A stretch of DNA of 41,720 nucleotides from IMG/VR virus record IMGVR_UViG_646862326_000004; one strand, 5' to 3'. The translations under genes were made by a program, and so were the position numbers. The DNA is from a virus (Duplodnaviria > Heunggongvirae > Uroviricota > Caudoviricetes). Positions 6,163 through 41,720 of this stretch are shown here, in pieces (the first letter of the stretch is position 1; each line of letters starts with the position of its first letter). The notes under the pieces were generated by a model that saw only the letters and a list, made by a program, of their open reading frames with translations, made no database searches and was not told the DNA's origin.

Positions 6163-6744
6163 ATGAACAACTCATGGTGGCAGGAACTAATGCATTTTTT
6201 CCTGCAAGGAATGACACTTAAACAGTTGATTCATATGCTAATCATCCTGATCATATTGATTATTGTTATGCCGGTAAGCGTAAAAGAATGGATAAACCTG
6301 CATAATCCAGAAATCCTTCCTCATTACTGGATGTATTACATCCTGTTGTTTTGCGTTAGCTATGTGCTTAACGGCGTTGTTAATTCCGCTTATCACGCTG
6401 TGACTGAAAGAATTGAGGTATTCGCTGCTCAGAAGCGCAAATCTAAAGAAGAAAAATATGTGCAAGATTTGTTTGATTCGTTAACTCTTGGAGAAAGAGC
6501 GTATTTGGCATTCGCTGTAGCCGCTAATAACCAGCTACAAACGGAAAAGGGCGCTCATGAATCAATTTCATTGCTCAAAAAAGGACTCCTCGTTCGAAGG
6601 CCTCCTGCTGTTGGATATCCTGATACCGACCGTTTCGTTATCCCTGAAAGCTATAGACATGAGTGCTACATTAGGTTTGCCGGGAAGGCAGACAGCCTTA
6701 TGGATGAACTTATCGCTCAGGATAAGCATGGCAAAAACAAGTAA
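6163..6744 (+). CDS. sieB: Superinfection exclusion protein B
   Basis: 193 aa, MNNSWWQELMHFFLQGMTLKQLIHMLIILIILIIVMPVSV... with N-terminal membrane segments, on the opposite strand inside the leftward operon as in lambda. Confidence 0.85.
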   Translation: MNNSWWQELMHFFLQGMTLKQLIHMLIILIILIIVMPVSVKEWINLHNPEILPHYWMYYILLFCVSYVLNGVVNSAYHAVTERIEVFAAQKRKSKEEKYVQDLFDSLTLGERAYLAFAVAANNQLQTEKGAHESISLLKKGLLVRRPPAVGYPDTDRFVIPESYRHECYIRFAGKADSLMDELIAQDKHGKNK

Positions 6745-6760
6745 TTAGCAAATGAATTTA

Positions 6761-7033
6761 TCATCTCGCCGTCAGTTGTTTTGATTTCCGGTAGCCTGCC
6801 GCGTAAAGAGCTACGTTCGGAAGACAAGTTGAACCTTCATATTTTCTGGTCAACGTTGTCAGAGTTATCACTTCTGCTCTCATTGCTGGTTTGAGCTTGC
6901 ATTGCAAGACCACTCGTGAAGGGGTTGGCCTGTGTAGCTTGTCGGAGCTGATCGCCTCCTGACTTTGCAGATTTGCGCGACGAGCTCTACGGCGAGAAGC
7001 TGCGGTGCCTTTAAATTCTGTTTTTCTGGACAT
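6761..7033 (-). CDS. N: N-type transcription antiterminator (P22 gene-24-like)
   Basis: 90 aa from ATG at 7033, with an N-terminal Arg-rich motif (GTAASRRRARRANLQ) and C-terminus PNVALYAAGYRKSKQLTAR resembling P22 gp24. The track start at 7105 would bury the Arg-rich motif and is less likely. Confidence 0.7.
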   Translation of the reverse strand: MSRKTEFKGTAASRRRARRANLQSQEAISSDKLHRPTPSRVVLQCKLKPAMRAEVITLTTLTRKYEGSTCLPNVALYAAGYRKSKQLTAR

Positions 7034-15075: not shown

Positions 15076-16158
15076 TTAGAACTGATAAACCAGACCTACA
15101 GCGACGATGTCGTCGGTATCAATACCAGCTGTTTTGGTAAACTTACTATCGTCAATTAAGTTGATTTTGTAATCAACAAAAGTGGACATGTTTTTATTAA
15201 AGTAGTAAGTAGCACCGACATCGACATACTTGACTAAGTCTCGGTCACCATGAACACCAAGGTCTTTACCTTTTGACTGAAGGTAAGCAACAGATGGACG
15301 CAGACCGAAGTCAAACTGATATTGTGCTACTGCTTCAAAGTTTTGTGCTTTGTTTGCAATATGGTTATTACCAAAAACGGTCATATTCTGAGTTTCAGAA
15401 TATGTGGTAGCCAGATAGATATTGTTCGCATCATATTTCAGGCCTGCAGCCCATACTTCCGCATTTTTGCCGGAGGCATTGAATTTGCTCTTACCATAGG
15501 CGACCTGACCGTCAGTGCGATCTGATTTAGCATAGGTTGCACCCACGCCGAATCCTTCATACTCATAAGTAGTGGAGAAACCGAAACCATCACCATTGGC
15601 TTCAGTTACGTCAGTGCGGTCATTTTTACCCTGATACTGAGCAGCAAAGTTCAGGCCATCGACCAGACCAAAGAAGTCGTTGTTACGATAAGTTGCAACA
15701 CCAGTAGTGCGACCAGTCATGAACACATCTGTTTGGGTCCAGGTATCACCACCGAATTCTGGCAGAACGTCAGTCCACGCACCGATGTCGTATGCTACAC
15801 CGTAGTTACGGCCGTAATCGATTGAGCCGTAATCACCAAATTTCAGGCCTGCAAATGCAAGACGGGTTTTGTCTTTGGAAGAACCTTGAGATTCAGCACG
15901 GTTGCCTTTGAATTCATATTCCCACTGACCGAAACCAGTCAGTTGATCGTTGATTTGGGTTTCACCTTTGAAGCCAAGACGGGCATAAGTAGTATCACCA
16001 TCATCTGCATCATTAGAGGAGAAGTAGTGCTTGGCATTAACTTTCCCGTATAGATCCAGCTTGTTACTGTCTTTATTATAAATTTCAGCTGCCTGAGCAG
16101 ACATCGCCATCAGTACTGATGCAGCTACAGCAGAAATTGCCACTGTTAATTTTTTCAT
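15076..16158 (-). CDS. nmpC: Outer-membrane general porin (NmpC/OmpD-like), prophage-encoded
   Basis: 360 aa from ATG 16158 with signal peptide [23 protein letters not shown], OmpC-family beta-barrel features and C-terminal Phe; matches my memory of DLP12 NmpC. Confidence 0.9.
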
Positions 16159-16584
16159 TGTACGCCCTTTTTTTGAACTATTATTAAAAAATGATGTCAC
16201 TGCGCGATAAATATTCATCTAATCAATGTGATTATTTCAAGATGTAAGTTTTAGTTTCTCATTTAATTTGTGAAGTAGATCTCTATTTTTATCTGAACCT
16301 TTTCTATCTAATCCTATTCATGGCTCTTGTCTGAACAAAAATAAATCTATTAGCTAATTTATATTAATGGCACTTATTTATAAGTGCTCTATAATTCTTT
16401 AGCTTAATTTAAACAAACTAAAAATAACATCGGAAATTATTAACTGGTTATTTGTTGAAGTTTTCTTATGCATTTGTGGTGGTGTTTTGAACACTCGGTG
16501 GCATTCTCACAAATATCATTTAGTAGTTTACGTACGTAAAAAATTGGTTATGCTGTTAAGAGTGGTTACTTCGTCACACAGCTT

Positions 16585-35537: not shown

Positions 35538-38500
35538 ATGGGTAAAGGCAGCAGTAAGGGGCATACCCCGCGCGAAGCGAAGGACAACCTGAAATCCACG
35601 CAGCTGCTGAGTGTGATTGATGCCATCAGCGAAGGGCCGGTTGAAGGTCCGGTGGATGGATTAAAAAGCGTGCTGCTGAACAGTACGCCGGTGCTGGACA
35701 GTGAGGGGAATACCAATATATCCGGCGTCACGGTGGTGTTCCGGGCAGGTGAGCAGGAGCAGTCACCGCCGGAGGGATTTGAATCCTCCGGCTCCGAGAC
35801 GGTGCTGGGTACGGAAGTGAAATATGACACGCCGATCACCCGCACCATTACGTCGGCAAACATCGACCGTCTGCGCTTTACCTTCGGTGTACAGGCACTG
35901 GTGGAAACCACCTCAAAGGGTGACAGGAATCCGTCGGAAGTCCGTCTGCTGGTTCAGATACAGCGTAATGGTGGCTGGGTGACGGAAAAAGACATCACCA
36001 TTAAGGGCAAAACCACCTCGCAGTATCTGGCCTCGGTGGTGGTGGGTAACCTGCCGCCGCGCCCGTTCAATATACGGATGCGCAGGATGACGCCGGACAG
36101 CACCACAGACCAGCTGCAGAACAAAACGCTCTGGTCGTCATACACCGAAATCATCGATGTGAAACAGTGCTACCCGAACACGGCACTGGTCGGCGTGCAG
36201 GTGGACTCGGAGCAGTTCGGCAGCCAGCAGGTGAGCCGTAATTATCATCTTCGCGGGCGCATTCTGCAGGTGCCGTCGAACTATAACCCGCAGACGCGGC
36301 AATACAGCGGTATCTGGGACGGAACGTTTAAGCCAGCATACAGCAACAACATGGCCTGGTGTCTGTGGGATATGCTGACCCATCCGCGCTACGGCATGGG
36401 GAAACGTCTTGGTGCGGCAGATGTGGATAAATGGGCGCTGTATGTCATCGGCCAGAATTGCGACCAGTCAGTGCCGGACGGCTTTGGCGGCACGGAGCCG
36501 CGCATCACCTGTAATGCGTACCTGACCACACAGCGCAAGGCGTGGGATGTGCTCAGTGATTTTTGCTCGGCGATGCGCTGTATGCCGGTATGGAACGGGC
36601 AGACGCTGACATTCGTGCAGGACCGACCGTCGGATAAGGTGTGGACCTATAACCGCAGTAATGTGGTGATGCCGGATGATGGCGCGCCGTTCCGCTACAG
36701 CTTCAGCGCCCTGAAAGACCGCCATAATGCCGTTGAGGTGAACTGGATTGACCCGGATAACGGCTGGGAGACGGCGACAGAGCTTGTGGAGGACACGCAG
36801 GCCATTGCCCGTTACGGTCGTAACGTCACGAAGATGGATGCCTTTGGCTGTACCAGCCGGGGGCAGGCACACCGCGCCGGGCTGTGGCTGATTAAAACGG
36901 AGCTGCTGGAAACGCAGACCGTGGACTTCAGCGTGGGTGCAGAAGGGCTTCGCCATGTACCGGGCGATGTCATTGAAATCTGTGATGATGACTATGCGGG
37001 GATCAGCATCGGCGGGCGCGTGCTGGCGGTGAACAACCAGACGCGGACACTGACGCTCGACCGTGAAATCACGCTGCCATCCTCCGGCACCACGCTGATA
37101 AGCCTGGCTGACGGACAGGGGAATCCGGTCAGCGTGGAGGTCCAGTCCGTCACCGACGGCGTGAAGGTAAAAGTGAGCCGTGTTCCTGACGGCGTTGCAG
37201 AATACAGCGTGTGGGGGCTGAAGTTGCCAACGTTGCGCCAGCGCCTGTTCCGCTGTGTGAGTATCCGTGAGAACGATGACGGCACGTATGCCATCACTGC
37301 CGTGCAGCATGTACCGGAAAAAGAGGCCATCGTGGATAACGGGGCGCACTTTGACGGCGACCAGAGCGGCACGGTGAATGGTGTCACGCCGCCAGCGGTG
37401 CAGCACCTGACTGCCGAAGTCACCGCAGACAGCGGGGAATATCAGGTGCTGGCGCGCTGGGACACGCCGAAGGTGGTGAAGGGGGTGAGCTTTATGCTTC
37501 GCCTGACCGTGGCAGCGGATGACGGCAGTGAGCGGCTGGTCAGCACGGCCCGGACGACGGAAACCACATACCGCTTCAGGCAACTGGCGCTGGGGAACTA
37601 CAGGCTGACAGTCCGGGCGGTAAATGCGTGGGGGCAGCAGGGCGATCCGGCATCGGTATCGTTCCGGATTGCCGCACCGGCAGCGCCGTCGCAGATTGAG
37701 CTGACACCGGGGTATTTTCAGATAACCGCCACGCCGCATCTTGCGGTTTATGATCCGACGGTACAGTTTGAGTTCTGGTTCTCGGAAAAGCGGATTGCGG
37801 ATATCAGGCAGGTTGAAACCACAGCACGCTATCTTGGCACGGCGCTGTACTGGATAGCCGCCAGTATCAATATCAAACCGGGCCATGATTATTATTTTTA
37901 CATCCGCAGTGTGAACACCGTTGGCAAATCGGCATTTGTGGAGGCTGTTGGCCAGCCGAGTGATGATGCATCCGGCTATCTGAATTTTTTCAAAGGAGAG
38001 ATAGGGAAAACCCATCTGGCTCAGGAGTTGTGGACGCAGATTGATAACGGTCAGCTTGCGCCTGACCTGGCTGAAATCAGGACGTCCATTACGGGTGTCA
38101 GCAATGAAATCACGCAGACCGTCAATAAGAAACTGGAAGACCAGAGTGCAGCGATCCAGCAGATACAGAAGGTTCAGGTTGATACAAATAATAACCTGAA
38201 CAGCATGTGGGCTGTGAAGCTGCAGCAGATGCAGGACGGACGCCTTTATATCGCGGGTATTGGTGCCGGTGTTGAGAATACTCCTGACGGTATGCAGAGT
38301 CAGGTGCTGCTGGCGGCGGACAGGATTGCGATGATTAATCCTGCGAATGGCAACACAAAGCCGATGTTTGTTGGGCAGGGCGATCAGATATTCATGAACG
38401 AAGTGTTCCTGAAATATCTGACGGCTCCCACCATTACCAGCGGTGGCAATCCCCCAACGTTTTCACTGACACCTGATGGTCGACTTTCTGCGAAAAATGC

Positions 38501-39020
38501 GGATATCAGCGGTAACGTGAACGCGAACTCCGGGACGCTCAACAACGTCACGATTAATCAGAACTGTCGGATTCTGGGAAAACTGTCAGCTAACCAGATT
38601 GAAGGTGATATTGTCAAAACGGTGGGAAAAGCCTTTCCGAGAAATGGCAGTTATGCCAGCGGTACAATAACGGTCACTGTGTACGATGACCAGGCTTTTG
38701 ACCGTCAGATAGTAGTCCCCCCCGTTCTGTTTCGTGGGGGTAAGCATGAAAACTTCAACAGCAACAACCAACAGTCATACTGGTATTCAACCTGTAAGCT
38801 GCAGGTACTGAAGAACGGACAGGAAATCTTTCAGCAACCCGCGACGGATGTCAGCAGGGTATTTTCATCAGTCATTGATATGCCTGCCGGACACGGCCAT
38901 GTCACCCTGACTTTCAATGTTTCTTCATATGGTGCTAATAACTGGACGCCAACGACCAGTATCAGCGACCTTCTTGTTGTTGTGATGAAGAAATCTACAG
39001 CCGGTATCAGTATCAGTTGA
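35538..39020 (+). CDS. J: Central tail fibre / host specificity protein J
   Basis: 1160 aa; first roughly 850 aa closely lambda J-like, C-terminal part diverged. Confidence 0.95.
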
Positions 39021-39038
39021 ATTTTATAACCCAGATAC

Positions 39039-39067
39039 GGGCGCCAGAAATGGCGCCTTTTTTATTT
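39039..39067 (+). terminator. Intrinsic terminator after J
   Basis: GGGCGCCA-GAAA-TGGCGCC hairpin followed by TTTTTTTATTT. Confidence 0.5.
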
Positions 39068-39078
39068 GTGGAGTGAAT

Positions 39079-41139
39079 ATGGCAGTACAGATTTCAGGCG
39101 TGCTGAAAGACGGTGCAGGAAAACCGATACAGAACTGCACCATTCAGCTCAAAGCAAAACGTAACAGCACCACGGTTGTGGTGAACACGGTGGCCTCAGA
39201 AAATCCGGATGAAGCCGGACGTTACAGCATGGATGTCGAGTATGGCCAGTACAGCGTTATCCTGCTGGTTGAAGGTTTTCCGCCTTCACATGCCGGGGCC
39301 ATCACCGTGTATGAGGATTCTAAGCCGGGGACATTGAATGATTTTCTGGGCGCTGCAACAGAAGATGATGTTCGTCCGGAGGCACTGTATCGTTTTGAAA
39401 AGATGGTGGAAGAGGTGGCACGCAACGCTGAAGCCGCCTCTCAGAGCGCAGCGGCAGCAAAGAAATCAGAAACAGCAGCGGCATCGTCCAGGAATGCGGC
39501 GAAAACATCAGAGACGAATGCAGGTAACAGCGCGAAAGCGGCAGCTTCTTCAAAAACAGCCGCACAAAACGCAGCAACAGCGGCAGAACGTTCAGAGACA
39601 AATGCCCGTGCGTCAGAAGAAGCCTCCGCAGACAGTGAAGAGGCTTCCCGCCGTAATGCAGAGTCAGCCGCTGAAAATGCCGGAGTCGCCACCACAAAAG
39701 CGCGGGAGGCCGCAGCAGACGCAACAAAGGCCGGGCAGAAAAAGGATGAGGCTCTGTCGGCAGCGACACGGGCTGAAAAGGCGGCAGACCGCGCAGAAGT
39801 CGCAGCGGAAGTGACTGCAGAGCCCTATGCGAATATAGTGCCGCCGCTGCCTGATGTGTGGATACCGTTTAACGATTCACTGGATATGATTGCGGGTTTT
39901 TCTCCGGGCTATAAAAAAATAGCTATTGGTGACGATGTGGTTCAGGTCGCCAGTGATAAACAGGTTAATTTCAGTCGCGCATCAACGGCAACATATATCA
40001 ACAAATCTGGCGAACTGAAAACGGCGGAAATTAATGAGCCGCGATTTGAGTGTGATGGCCTGCTTATTGAGGGACAAAGAACGAACTACATGCTCAATTC
40101 GGAAAGTCCAGCCAGCTGGGGGAAGTCATCAAACATGGATGTGCCCGAAACCGGGACAGATAGTTTTGGTTTTACTTATGGAAAGTTTGTCTGCAACGAT
40201 TCTCTGGTTGGGCAAACTTCGGCTATTAATATGGCATCAATTGCTGCAACAAAGTCAGTTGATGTCTCAGGCGATAACAAGTACGTGACAACCTCATGCC
40301 GTTTTAAAACAGAACGACAGGTAAGGTTACGTATACGGTTTGATAAGTATGATGGTAGTGCAACAACTTTTCTTGGCGATGCGTACATTGATACGCAAAC
40401 GCTTGAAATTAATATGACAGGTGGGGCTGCCGGCAGAATTACGGCACGAGTCAGGAAGGATAAGACCACAGGCTGGATTTTTGCAGAGGCAACGATTCAG
40501 GCAATTGATGGTGAGTTAAAAATAGGCTCTCAGATACAGTATTCTCCTGAGCGGGGTGGGGCAACAGTATCTGGTGACTATATTTATCTTGCCACCCCAC
40601 AAGTAGAGAATGGGCCGTGTGTATCATCATTTATTATTTCAGGAGGCAGCGCAACGACAAGAGCCAGTGATTTGGTTAGTATCCCCACCAGAAATAATCT
40701 TTATAAGTTACCATTTACTTTTTTACTTGAGATTCATAAAAACTGGGATATTGCACCAAACGCCGCACCCCGCGTGTGGGATATAGCAGCAGCCAATACC
40801 GGGCAATCAGCAATTGCAGCAATCAACAGAGGTAGTGGTAAGTTATATATGAGTCTGTCAAACCCTTCAGGCTTGTATGTTAATAGCGCAGCGACAGATG
40901 TATTTGCAGAGAAAACCACATTTGGATGTATTGCAAAAGCTGATGGTCACTTTCATGTGGTGACAAATGGTAAAGCGGTTAATGAAGTTTATTGTGAATA
41001 TAATGGTGTGACCGCTGATAAAAATATCCGATTTGGAGGGCAGACGAATACTGGAGAACGACATCTGTTTGGCCATATTCGCAATTTCCGCATATGGCAT
41101 AAAGAATTAAATGACAGGCAATTAAAAGAGGTCGTATGA
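39079..41139 (+). CDS. Side tail fibre (Stf-like N-terminus, Ala/Ser-rich repeats, lectin-like C-terminal domain)
   Basis: 686 aa from ATG 39079 (MAVQISGVLKDGAGKPIQNCTIQLKAKRNSTTVVVNTV...), lambda Stf-like N-terminus; C-terminal ~200 aa (RNFRIWHKELNDRQLKEV) resembles a LamG/concanavalin-like fold. Confidence 0.7.
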   Translation: MAVQISGVLKDGAGKPIQNCTIQLKAKRNSTTVVVNTVASENPDEAGRYSMDVEYGQYSVILLVEGFPPSHAGAITVYEDSKPGTLNDFLGAATEDDVRPEALYRFEKMVEEVARNAEAASQSAAAAKKSETAAASSRNAAKTSETNAGNSAKAAASSKTAAQNAATAAERSETNARASEEASADSEEASRRNAESAAENAGVATTKAREAAADATKAGQKKDEALSAATRAEKAADRAEVAAEVTAEPYANIVPPLPDVWIPFNDSLDMIAGFSPGYKKIAIGDDVVQVASDKQVNFSRASTATYINKSGELKTAEINEPRFECDGLLIEGQRTNYMLNSESPASWGKSSNMDVPETGTDSFGFTYGKFVCNDSLVGQTSAINMASIAATKSVDVSGDNKYVTTSCRFKTERQVRLRIRFDKYDGSATTFLGDAYIDTQTLEINMTGGAAGRITARVRKDKTTGWIFAEATIQAIDGELKIGSQIQYSPERGGATVSGDYIYLATPQVENGPCVSSFIISGGSATTRASDLVSIPTRNNLYKLPFTFLLEIHKNWDIAPNAAPRVWDIAAANTGQSAIAAINRGSGKLYMSLSNPSGLYVNSAATDVFAEKTTFGCIAKADGHFHVVTNGKAVNEVYCEYNGVTADKNIRFGGQTNTGERHLFGHIRNFRIWHKELNDRQLKEVV

Positions 41140-41414
41140 AAGATTTAACTTTGAAGTTTCATGACAAACTGCAGTTTAAGGCCTTCCTGTCATCTCTTGA
41201 CTGGGAGGAGGATGAAGACCTCCAGAATAAACTGTTAGTCGATGAAATTGGTTTCACCTACACAGAAACAGGGGTAACAGAAGAGGGAGAACCTGTCTGT
41301 GTCCGGAATGACGGTTATTTTGTCAACATTCGCATTCTTGATGACTTGTTTGATGTTTCTGTATTCTCTGATTATGTCGTGGAGCTGGAAACACCGCTTC
41401 GGGAATGGAGCTGA
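41136..41414 (+). CDS. Hypothetical acidic protein downstream of the fibre gene
   Basis: 92 aa, ATGA-coupled to the fibre gene stop; no family recognised. Confidence 0.45.
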   Translation: MKDLTLKFHDKLQFKAFLSSLDWEEDEDLQNKLLVDEIGFTYTETGVTEEGEPVCVRNDGYFVNIRILDDLFDVSVFSDYVVELETPLREWS

Positions 41415-41426
41415 AAGGAGGAAATA

Positions 41427-41720
41427 ATGGATATAAGCCCCTTACTTCATGCGCTTTGTGCTGTGGCTGCGCAGATACTGGTTGGTCTTTTTACCGGAAA
41501 CTGGGCTTACGGAGCGATAGCCGGTTGTACGTTCTTCATTGCGCGTGAACATACCCAGGCAGAATATCGCTGGATTGAAATGTTCGGGCATGGCAAGCGA
41601 ATGAATATGCCGTGGTGGGGCGGTTTTGATCCGCGAGCTTGGGATGTGGCAAGCCTGATGGATTTTGCTGTGCCGGTGGTGGCGTGTCTGCTGGTCTGGC
41701 TGTTGGTTAATCGTGGGTGA
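41427..41720 (+). CDS. Hypothetical small membrane protein
   Basis: 97 aa with strong AAGGAGG Shine-Dalgarno; two hydrophobic segments (N- and C-terminal); complete ORF ending at the window edge. Confidence 0.45.
   Translation: MDISPLLHALCAVAAQILVGLFTGNWAYGAIAGCTFFIAREHTQAEYRWIEMFGHGKRMNMPWWGGFDPRAWDVASLMDFAVPVVACLLVWLLVNRG

Follow-up and report, generated by a model that had tools for sequence, protein, structure and literature searches.

The closest described relative of the locus analysed here is the host-recognition region of Escherichia phage 21 (CPT_21_21 to CPT_21_24, OL657228; Feiss et al. 2022, PMC9119081). Our locus is the right end of a 41,720-nucleotide tailed-phage sequence (IMG/VR record IMGVR_UViG_646862326_000004; the window, meaning this whole stretch). 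In both, gene J, the side tail fibre gene (stf) and two small open reading frames (ORFs) coding for 92 and 97 residues stand in the same order, with the same terminator and without lom, the gene that lambda has between J and its side-fibre gene. Elsewhere the window differs from phage 21: it is another lambdoid mosaic, which carries lambda-type exo/bet/gam as well as a porin gene and has its closest matches in PhiR63_2 and ev017. The lambda J-LamB system (PDB 8XCJ and related; PMC11101478) is alike in domain architecture and, judging by published work, in receptor. Its J is ~97% identical to the window J as far as residue ~815, whereas the helical shaft of the window J is 28 residues longer and its receptor-binding domain has different loop sequences. 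The side fibre shares the collar domain, the Ala-rich shaft and the place downstream of J with Ur-lambda Stf, which has a Tfa partner (PDB 9E7M; PMC12617516). However, the gp37-like intertwined OmpC-binding tip of Ur-lambda Stf is replaced by two globular beta-sandwich domains, D1 and D2, and the 92-residue ORF stands in place of tfa. D1 is homologous to the head-spike fibre Rcc01080/GhsB of the gene transfer agent (GTA) from Rhodobacter capsulatus (NF048003; PMC7296036, PMC10218006). Rcc01080 is a single chain that sits on the capsid pentamer via an N-terminal (I/L-G) repeat, whereas the window domain lies at the end of a tail fibre and is accompanied by an extra LamG-like domain. The whole two-domain tip is also found in the fibres of the virulent coliphages rolling, EdH4 and NBEco002 (BFVD models; TM-score 0.90-0.95 on the query, 35-50% identity), which differ from the window phage in fibre base and phage type and are likewise uncharacterised.

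The four co-oriented genes form the right end of the late operon in a prophage-ordered lambdoid genome. By megablast, positions 37500-41720 are 100% identical over their full length to Escherichia phage 21 (OL657228) and phage ev017, and several further lambdoids are at least 99% identical. In a translated comparison, the window J has six substitutions relative to phage 21 J, each on the N-terminal side of residue 686; from there to residue 1160 it is 100% identical to phage 21, as are the side fibre and the 92- and 97-residue ORFs. The left 20 kb of the window, on the other hand, is 100% identical to PhiR63_2 and 99.4% identical to ev017, and is not that of phage 21. With a left part like PhiR63_2/ev017 and a right end like phage 21, the window is, as judged by sequence, a mosaic lambdoid with the phage 21 allele of the host-recognition end. 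The features of this end are:

35538-39020, plus strand: J, 1160 residues.
39039-39066, plus strand: strong hairpin of the intrinsic-terminator type with its T run, separating J from stf, 8-bp stem with 6 GC pairs, GGGCGCC...GGCGCCT (scan and direct reading).
39079-41139, plus strand: side tail fibre gene stf, from ATG 39079 (GTG 39073 in the ORF list), 686-688 residues.
41136-41414, plus strand: 92-residue ORF, acidic (pI 4.1), its start overlapping the fibre stop codon (ATGA).
41427-41720, plus strand: 97-residue ORF, predicted membrane protein, its stop codon ending at the last base of the window.

The hairpin carries a terminator annotation in the phage 21 record. The true start of stf is most likely ATG 39079, which has a GGAG ribosome-binding site at 39070-39073 and is the start annotated in phage 21, rather than GTG 39073.

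The original prediction, made from the sequence alone, described J as near-identical to lambda J for its first ~850 residues and substantially different thereafter. J is 83% identical to lambda J overall (BLASTP) and about 96-99% identical up to residue ~811-816, so the near-identity stands but ends earlier than predicted. At the nucleotide level, identity in 90-nt windows is 0.89-0.99 to nt ~37968 and then 0.28-0.51, and a drop in G+C from ~0.62 to ~0.50 coincides with this break. J passes NCBIfam lambda_TipJ (NF049904) with 2382.8 bits against a cut-off of 1950, and all six J-specific Pfam domains are present, including Phage-tail_3, FNIII-A_GpJ, Ig_J, Ig_J_second, Phage_Tail_Tip and Ig_GpJ_C. 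Our division of the diverged part into three follows the lambda domain map, in which the alpha-helical shaft comprises residues 809-861 (PMC11101478):

35538-37982, plus strand: lambda-like part of J, residues 1-~815, with hub domains, FNIII-A and two Ig-like domains (nucleotide identity and Pfam).
37983-38237, plus strand: diverged helical-shaft region, residues ~816-900, with a 28-residue net insertion relative to lambda (nucleotide identity 0.28-0.51, with gaps).
38238-38579, plus strand: central straight fibre (beta prism), residues ~901-1014, in part conserved relative to lambda (nucleotide identity 0.60-0.81; Phage_Tail_Tip at 872-1000).
38580-39020, plus strand: receptor-binding domain of the phage 21 type, residues ~1015-1160 and stop codon (Ig_GpJ_C at 1038-1160, E 1.6e-37).

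The region singled out in the original prediction starts at 38580, which corresponds to J residue ~1015, the start of the receptor-binding domain. The last 160 residues of J, which include this domain, are 47% identical to lambda, and the C-terminal divergence was thus correctly recognised. The 28-residue net insertion lies at ~38010-38160 (J residues ~826-875); the matching lambda shaft segment refolds upon LamB binding.

This divergence had been taken to suggest a J receptor different from that of lambda. The evidence from phage 21 contradicts this part of the prediction. Phage 21 (OL657228) is reported to use LamB natively: in double knock-out plating its ancestor infects through LamB alone, and it gains OmpC and then OmpF via mutations in J (Borin et al.). 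The ancestor is scored 'L' only in the follow-up (Virus Evolution 2024), and phage 21 appears among the LamB phages elsewhere (PMC12803456). The published phage 21 residue numbers I1025/V1026 fit the window J. Since J 686-1160 is identical to a phage whose native receptor is LamB, the diverged C-terminus proves to be that of a LamB-using variant, the outcome named beforehand as counting against a new J receptor. The 21-type receptor-binding domain is about equally far from lambda (47%) and from h434 (46%). If, as we take it, h434 is the OmpC host-range allele, the receptor cannot be predicted from divergence alone. Most likely, the divergence of J from lambda represents a recombinational mosaic with an alternative LamB-binding allele, not a receptor switch.

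The next gene was predicted to encode a fibre with a lambda Stf-like N-terminus, Ala/Ser-rich shaft repeats and a C-terminal LamG/concanavalin-like domain of roughly 200 residues. Its parts, numbered from the ATG where so stated, are as follows:

39079-39360, plus strand: N-terminal collar/attachment domain, residues 1-94 from the ATG (PF08400, 9e7m).
39361-39834, plus strand: Ala/Glu/Ser-rich shaft of ~155 residues (composition; weak similarity to the lambda Stf shaft).
39835-39957, plus strand: start of the conserved C-terminal module, with the motif P-x-PDVW-x-P-[FL]-NDSL and N-terminal beta strands.
39958-40704, plus strand: D1, GTA head-spike-fibre domain, residues ~297-545, hypervariable core ~345-515.
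40696-41139, plus strand: D2, terminal LamG/pentraxin/concanavalin-A-like domain, residues ~542-688 and stop codon, hypervariable core ~570-655.

The predicted Stf-like N-terminus is borne out: residues 3-160 are 74% identical to lambda orf-401/Stf, PF08400 scores 230 bits against a threshold of 26.6, and the solved collar domain of Ur-lambda Stf (9e7m chain Ta) is matched at residues 3-96 with E 1.4e-49, the collar domain being 83% identical to the solved lambda domain. In Ur-lambda, the Stf N-domain forms a dodecameric collar at the gpV-gpM junction, and residues 102-393 form a coiled coil (PMC12617516). The shaft of the window fibre (residues 95-250 from the ATG) is about half as long as that of lambda and is presumably a trimeric coiled coil by analogy. 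Ala makes up 33% of it, Glu 14% and Ser 10%; it also contains three loose AA[KE][KRT]SE motifs, and a search for DNA tandem repeats in the shaft-coding stretch found none; the Ala-rich composition is therefore as predicted, and the repeats do not extend to the DNA level.

The fibre's C-terminal part is larger than predicted. The non-lambda part comprises ~430 residues and two domains, and the last 434 residues act as one unit, with 2896 matches at E <= 1e-3 among 1.84 billion representative proteins. Many of these matches cover the whole module and form the C-terminal end of proteins whose N-terminal parts vary widely in length. An AlphaFold2 model of the tip, built with 51 diverse members, has a predicted local distance difference test score (pLDDT) of 93.7 and a predicted TM-score (pTM) of 0.90 and is nearly all beta. 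The N-terminal beta strands of the module probably complete the terminal lectin-like domain. D1 passes NCBIfam NF048003 'GTA_spike_fiber' with 55.3 bits against a cut-off of 36 (residues 331-531), and its family profile matches Rcc01080 (6tb9_F3) with E 3.9e-36 as well as the tail fibre gp17 (9occ), E217 gp45 and Pa193 gp46 at ~1e-15. The GTA-type N-terminal (I/L-G) repeat is absent from the fibre. As the N-terminus is a lambda Stf collar domain and this anchor is lacking, the protein contains a GTA head-spike domain but is not a head-spike fibre.

The predicted LamG-like character of the extreme C-terminus is supported. Laminin_G_3 (PF13385) is matched in 34 of the 51 homologues, with a best E of 1.9e-11, and the D2 profile matches an S-layer LamG-like domain (4qvs, 1.3e-7), C-reactive protein (2e-4), BoNT/D Hc (1e-3), AbnA domain 4 and CBM40 sialidase modules. 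Bona fide carbohydrate-binding modules are among the top structural matches of D2, and the domain has the two-sheet jelly-roll of the concanavalin A-like superfamily. Structure prediction and profiles together support a concanavalin-A/LamG-type fold at the end of the fibre, where the lack of any lectin-like fold would have counted against the prediction. Comparison of D1 with D2 by hhalign gives no relationship and no sign of internal duplication. The fibre has no similarity to lambda Stf beyond the shaft and no gp37-like tip, and no Tfa/Caudo_TAP chaperone gene is found, the downstream ORFs having no named family.

Sequence variation in the tip is concentrated in the cores of both domains. 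Across the family the least conserved segments are residues ~345-515 (D1 core) and especially ~570-655 (D2 core), between strongly conserved flanks. The two cores swap independently between Escherichia alleles (~97% versus ~20% identity). In the loci L005, L052 and L060, D1 is kept at 83-100% while D2 falls to about 10-36%, and in L006 and L007 both differ. Such exchange is typical of parts that bind receptors and fits the presence of two ligand-binding surfaces under diversifying selection. The sole relative with functional data, Rcc01080, binds the capsular polysaccharide of R. capsulatus (PMC7296036, PMC10218006), and the lateral fibres of lambda, T5 and small coliphage siphoviruses are described as non-essential, reversible primary adhesins, often for O-antigen. 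By analogy, carbohydrate binding by the fibre tip is plausible. With a concanavalin-A/LamG fold and without the gp37-like OmpC tip of Ur-lambda, the accessory receptor of the side fibre very probably differs from that of lambda. Of the predicted change in receptor specificity, it is thus the side-fibre part that survives.

The tip and the 92-residue ORF are physically linked. In a survey of 80 IMG/VR loci, the ORF begins 0-3 nt past the last fibre codon in 77 of the 79 with room for it, and in one further locus it is displaced 2669 nt downstream. It is also found directly 3' of the fibre tip in a P2-like prophage, and in Buttiauxella a 93-residue ORF directly 3' of the fibre has a translation ~29% identical to the 92-residue protein. 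The protein is predicted to fold confidently, and searches gave no named family and no informative structural neighbour. Co-evolution with the fibre, with identities rising and falling together, was considered and rejected: the ORF of L006 retains 91% identity although D1 and D2 of this locus are at about 10-35%, and what it follows is therefore just its physical linkage to the fibre's extreme C-terminus. Because its sequence does not follow the D1 and D2 cores, the 92-residue protein does not, on this comparison, determine specificity; our guess is that it has a role in assembly or an accessory one.

Of 59 loci, 49 have the 97-residue ORF 3' of the fibre, where it lies at +291, +1009 or +1377 nt; irrespective of the preceding fibre allele, its identity stays at 89-100%. 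The window copy does not differ from phage 21 CPT_21_24, which is annotated as a putative membrane protein with a 29-residue signal sequence and two transmembrane domains, and it matches PHROG 1443 (no assigned function). It could be a lysogen-expressed moron. In L005, L007 and IMG/VR L060-L095, which have another D2 core, ~0.7-1.1 kb of extra DNA lies between the 92- and 97-residue ORFs, which places the latter at +1009 or +1377 instead of +291. In E. coli genomes the ORF also stands beside other genes for tail fibres (H119-H120), and its stop codon is the exact end of the window and of many prophage contigs in IMG/VR.

The tip module is found on fibre bases of the PF12571 and PF03406 types. 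In the P2-like prophage L003 (GCA_031791655.1), a P2-type N-terminus (PF12571) is fused to a tip 88% identical to that of the window, and the 92- and 97-residue ORFs follow with the same spacing, succeeded by a 74-residue Caudo_TAP fragment (6612-6836). This fragment is apparently a remnant of the original P2-type fibre chaperone gene, and the combination indicates that the cassette has replaced the original tip and chaperone gene. A more far-reaching model, which we regard as doubtful, treats the tip and the 92-residue ORF as a self-sufficient adhesin cassette, independent of the Tfa chaperone and moving between the fibres of siphoviruses and myoviruses. D1 and D2 would then be two separate glycan-binding sites retargeted by independent exchange. 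The 92-residue protein would represent a novel type of factor, for fibre assembly or accessory, and the lysogen would express the 97-residue membrane protein as a factor connected with the receptor of the fibre, for example in masking or exclusion.

Two further loci lie at a distance from these genes. A 380-residue ORF (15076-16218, minus strand) corresponds to the porin gene, annotated as OmpD/NmpC/OmpC-like, that in PhiR63_2 and ev017 separates Q from the lysis genes; such a porin, encoded by a prophage, could change the receptor surface of the lysogen. In phage 21 (21967-25416) and PhiR63_2 (42620-46069), sitABCD, an iron/manganese ABC transporter and virulence-associated moron, lies on the opposite strand 3' of the cassette, and it is probably also present beyond the window end in the source genome.

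Taken together, the locus probably encodes a phage 21-type lambdoid siphovirus adsorption apparatus that works in two steps, reversible binding of a glycan by the side-fibre tip and then binding of LamB by J. The side fibres, probably four trimers, would be anchored by the lambda-type N-terminal collar and extended on the Ala-rich coiled-coil shaft, so that each chain presents a two-domain beta-sandwich tip with the GTA head-spike-fibre domain and the LamG/concanavalin-A-like domain. In the first step the tip would bind a surface glycan (lipopolysaccharide core, O-antigen, capsule or enterobacterial common antigen) reversibly, and this would speed adsorption without being essential. In the second, which others have shown for the identical J region of phage 21, the trimeric J tip with its 21-type Ig-like domain would bind the LamB maltoporin, and LamB binding would trigger tail opening as in lambda. 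The fibre tip would act as a mobile cassette, consisting of the tip with the 92-residue ORF and usually the 97-residue membrane protein, on lambda-type, P2-type and other bases, and independent exchange of its two variable cores would lead to retargeting. We consider glycan binding followed by LamB binding the most likely mechanism because of the capsule binding of Rcc01080, the variable cores and the accepted role of lateral fibres.

Several observations weigh against this two-step mechanism. The trimeric state, the number of fibres and the coiled coil are inferred from Ur-lambda. The Laminin_G_3 match at fibre 562-683 scores 23.9-25.1 bits, below the gathering score of 27.6, and concanavalin-A-like and LamG folds also mediate protein-protein contacts, as in neurexins and BoNT Hc-N. 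Our literature searches on side-fibre and prophage work gave no experiment on this fibre type in E. coli. The laboratory phage 21 stock of Borin et al. carries G18903A relative to GenBank. In the window this is position 38748, where codon 1071 (here GAA) begins, and the change is E1071K. LamB use by the exact window domain therefore rests on identity at 159 of 160 residues and on the general statement of phage 21 as a LamB phage. This substitution in the LamB-tested strain, the mere 47% identity to lambda at a distance similar to that of h434, and the opening of OmpC use by single J mutations in phage 21 are what could be said for a diverged J tip that recognises another receptor, such as OmpC, OmpF or FhuA. 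We consider this extremely unlikely, as the C-terminal 475 residues of J are identical to those of phage 21, which is natively a LamB phage with an ancestor scored as LamB-only; the idea is already largely refuted.

For the side fibre, the tip could instead bind an outer-membrane protein, OmpC as in Ur-lambda Stf or another porin, with the beta-sandwich domains serving as protein-binding modules. The fibre, however, has neither similarity to the gp37-like OmpC-binding tip nor a Tfa chaperone, its sole functionally studied relative binds capsular polysaccharide and its best structural matches are carbohydrate-binding modules. A 'separate tail fiber protein', which the Virus Evolution paper does not name, is mutated in an evolved phage 21 isolate. 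A protein receptor for the tip is unlikely in our view, yet a serious alternative. The fibre might also play no part in host recognition, either because it is dispensable cargo or because, as in lambda PaPa, virions do not carry it. Lambda and T5 can do without their side fibres (PMC12617516), a terminator-like hairpin separates J from stf, and we found no virion data on phage 21 fibres in the literature. Against this, the ORF is intact at 686 residues with a collar domain so close to that of lambda, and the fibre is abundant, with 2232 sequences in its 90%-identity cluster and 452 complete E. coli genomes that match at least 80% of the cassette. Diversification of the tip, cassette by cassette, implies selection on binding. 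As for the hairpin, Q-modified late transcription in lambda reads through terminators. We therefore regard a fibre without function in adsorption as very unlikely, and glycan binding by the tip before LamB binding by J remains the mechanism we prefer.

The sequence, its annotation and the receptor of J are already published, and the locus, though real, is an unremarkable part of a classical phage. As far as the literature was searched, no publication covers how the fibre tip folds, what it binds or what its two companions do. The fibre is named 'phage head spike fiber domain-containing protein' by PGAP. The cassette is matched in 1908 of 5426 complete E. coli genomes, the 452 mentioned above among them; a scan of genome contigs returned 9 loci only, and the 51-sequence alignment proved too diverse as a seed for it. 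With matches in about one third of complete genomes, the side-fibre tip is among the commonest prophage fibre tips in E. coli. For J, LamB is the receptor of two domains with only 47% identity between them. That a lambdoid J tip has diverged is thus not enough to infer a new receptor, which calls for caution in sequence-based prediction of host range. The tip is modular, apparently independent of Tfa and portable between lambda-type and P2-type fibres, and is therefore a candidate part for engineering the host range of phages or packaged cosmids. Phage 21 itself is now a model in coevolution experiments.

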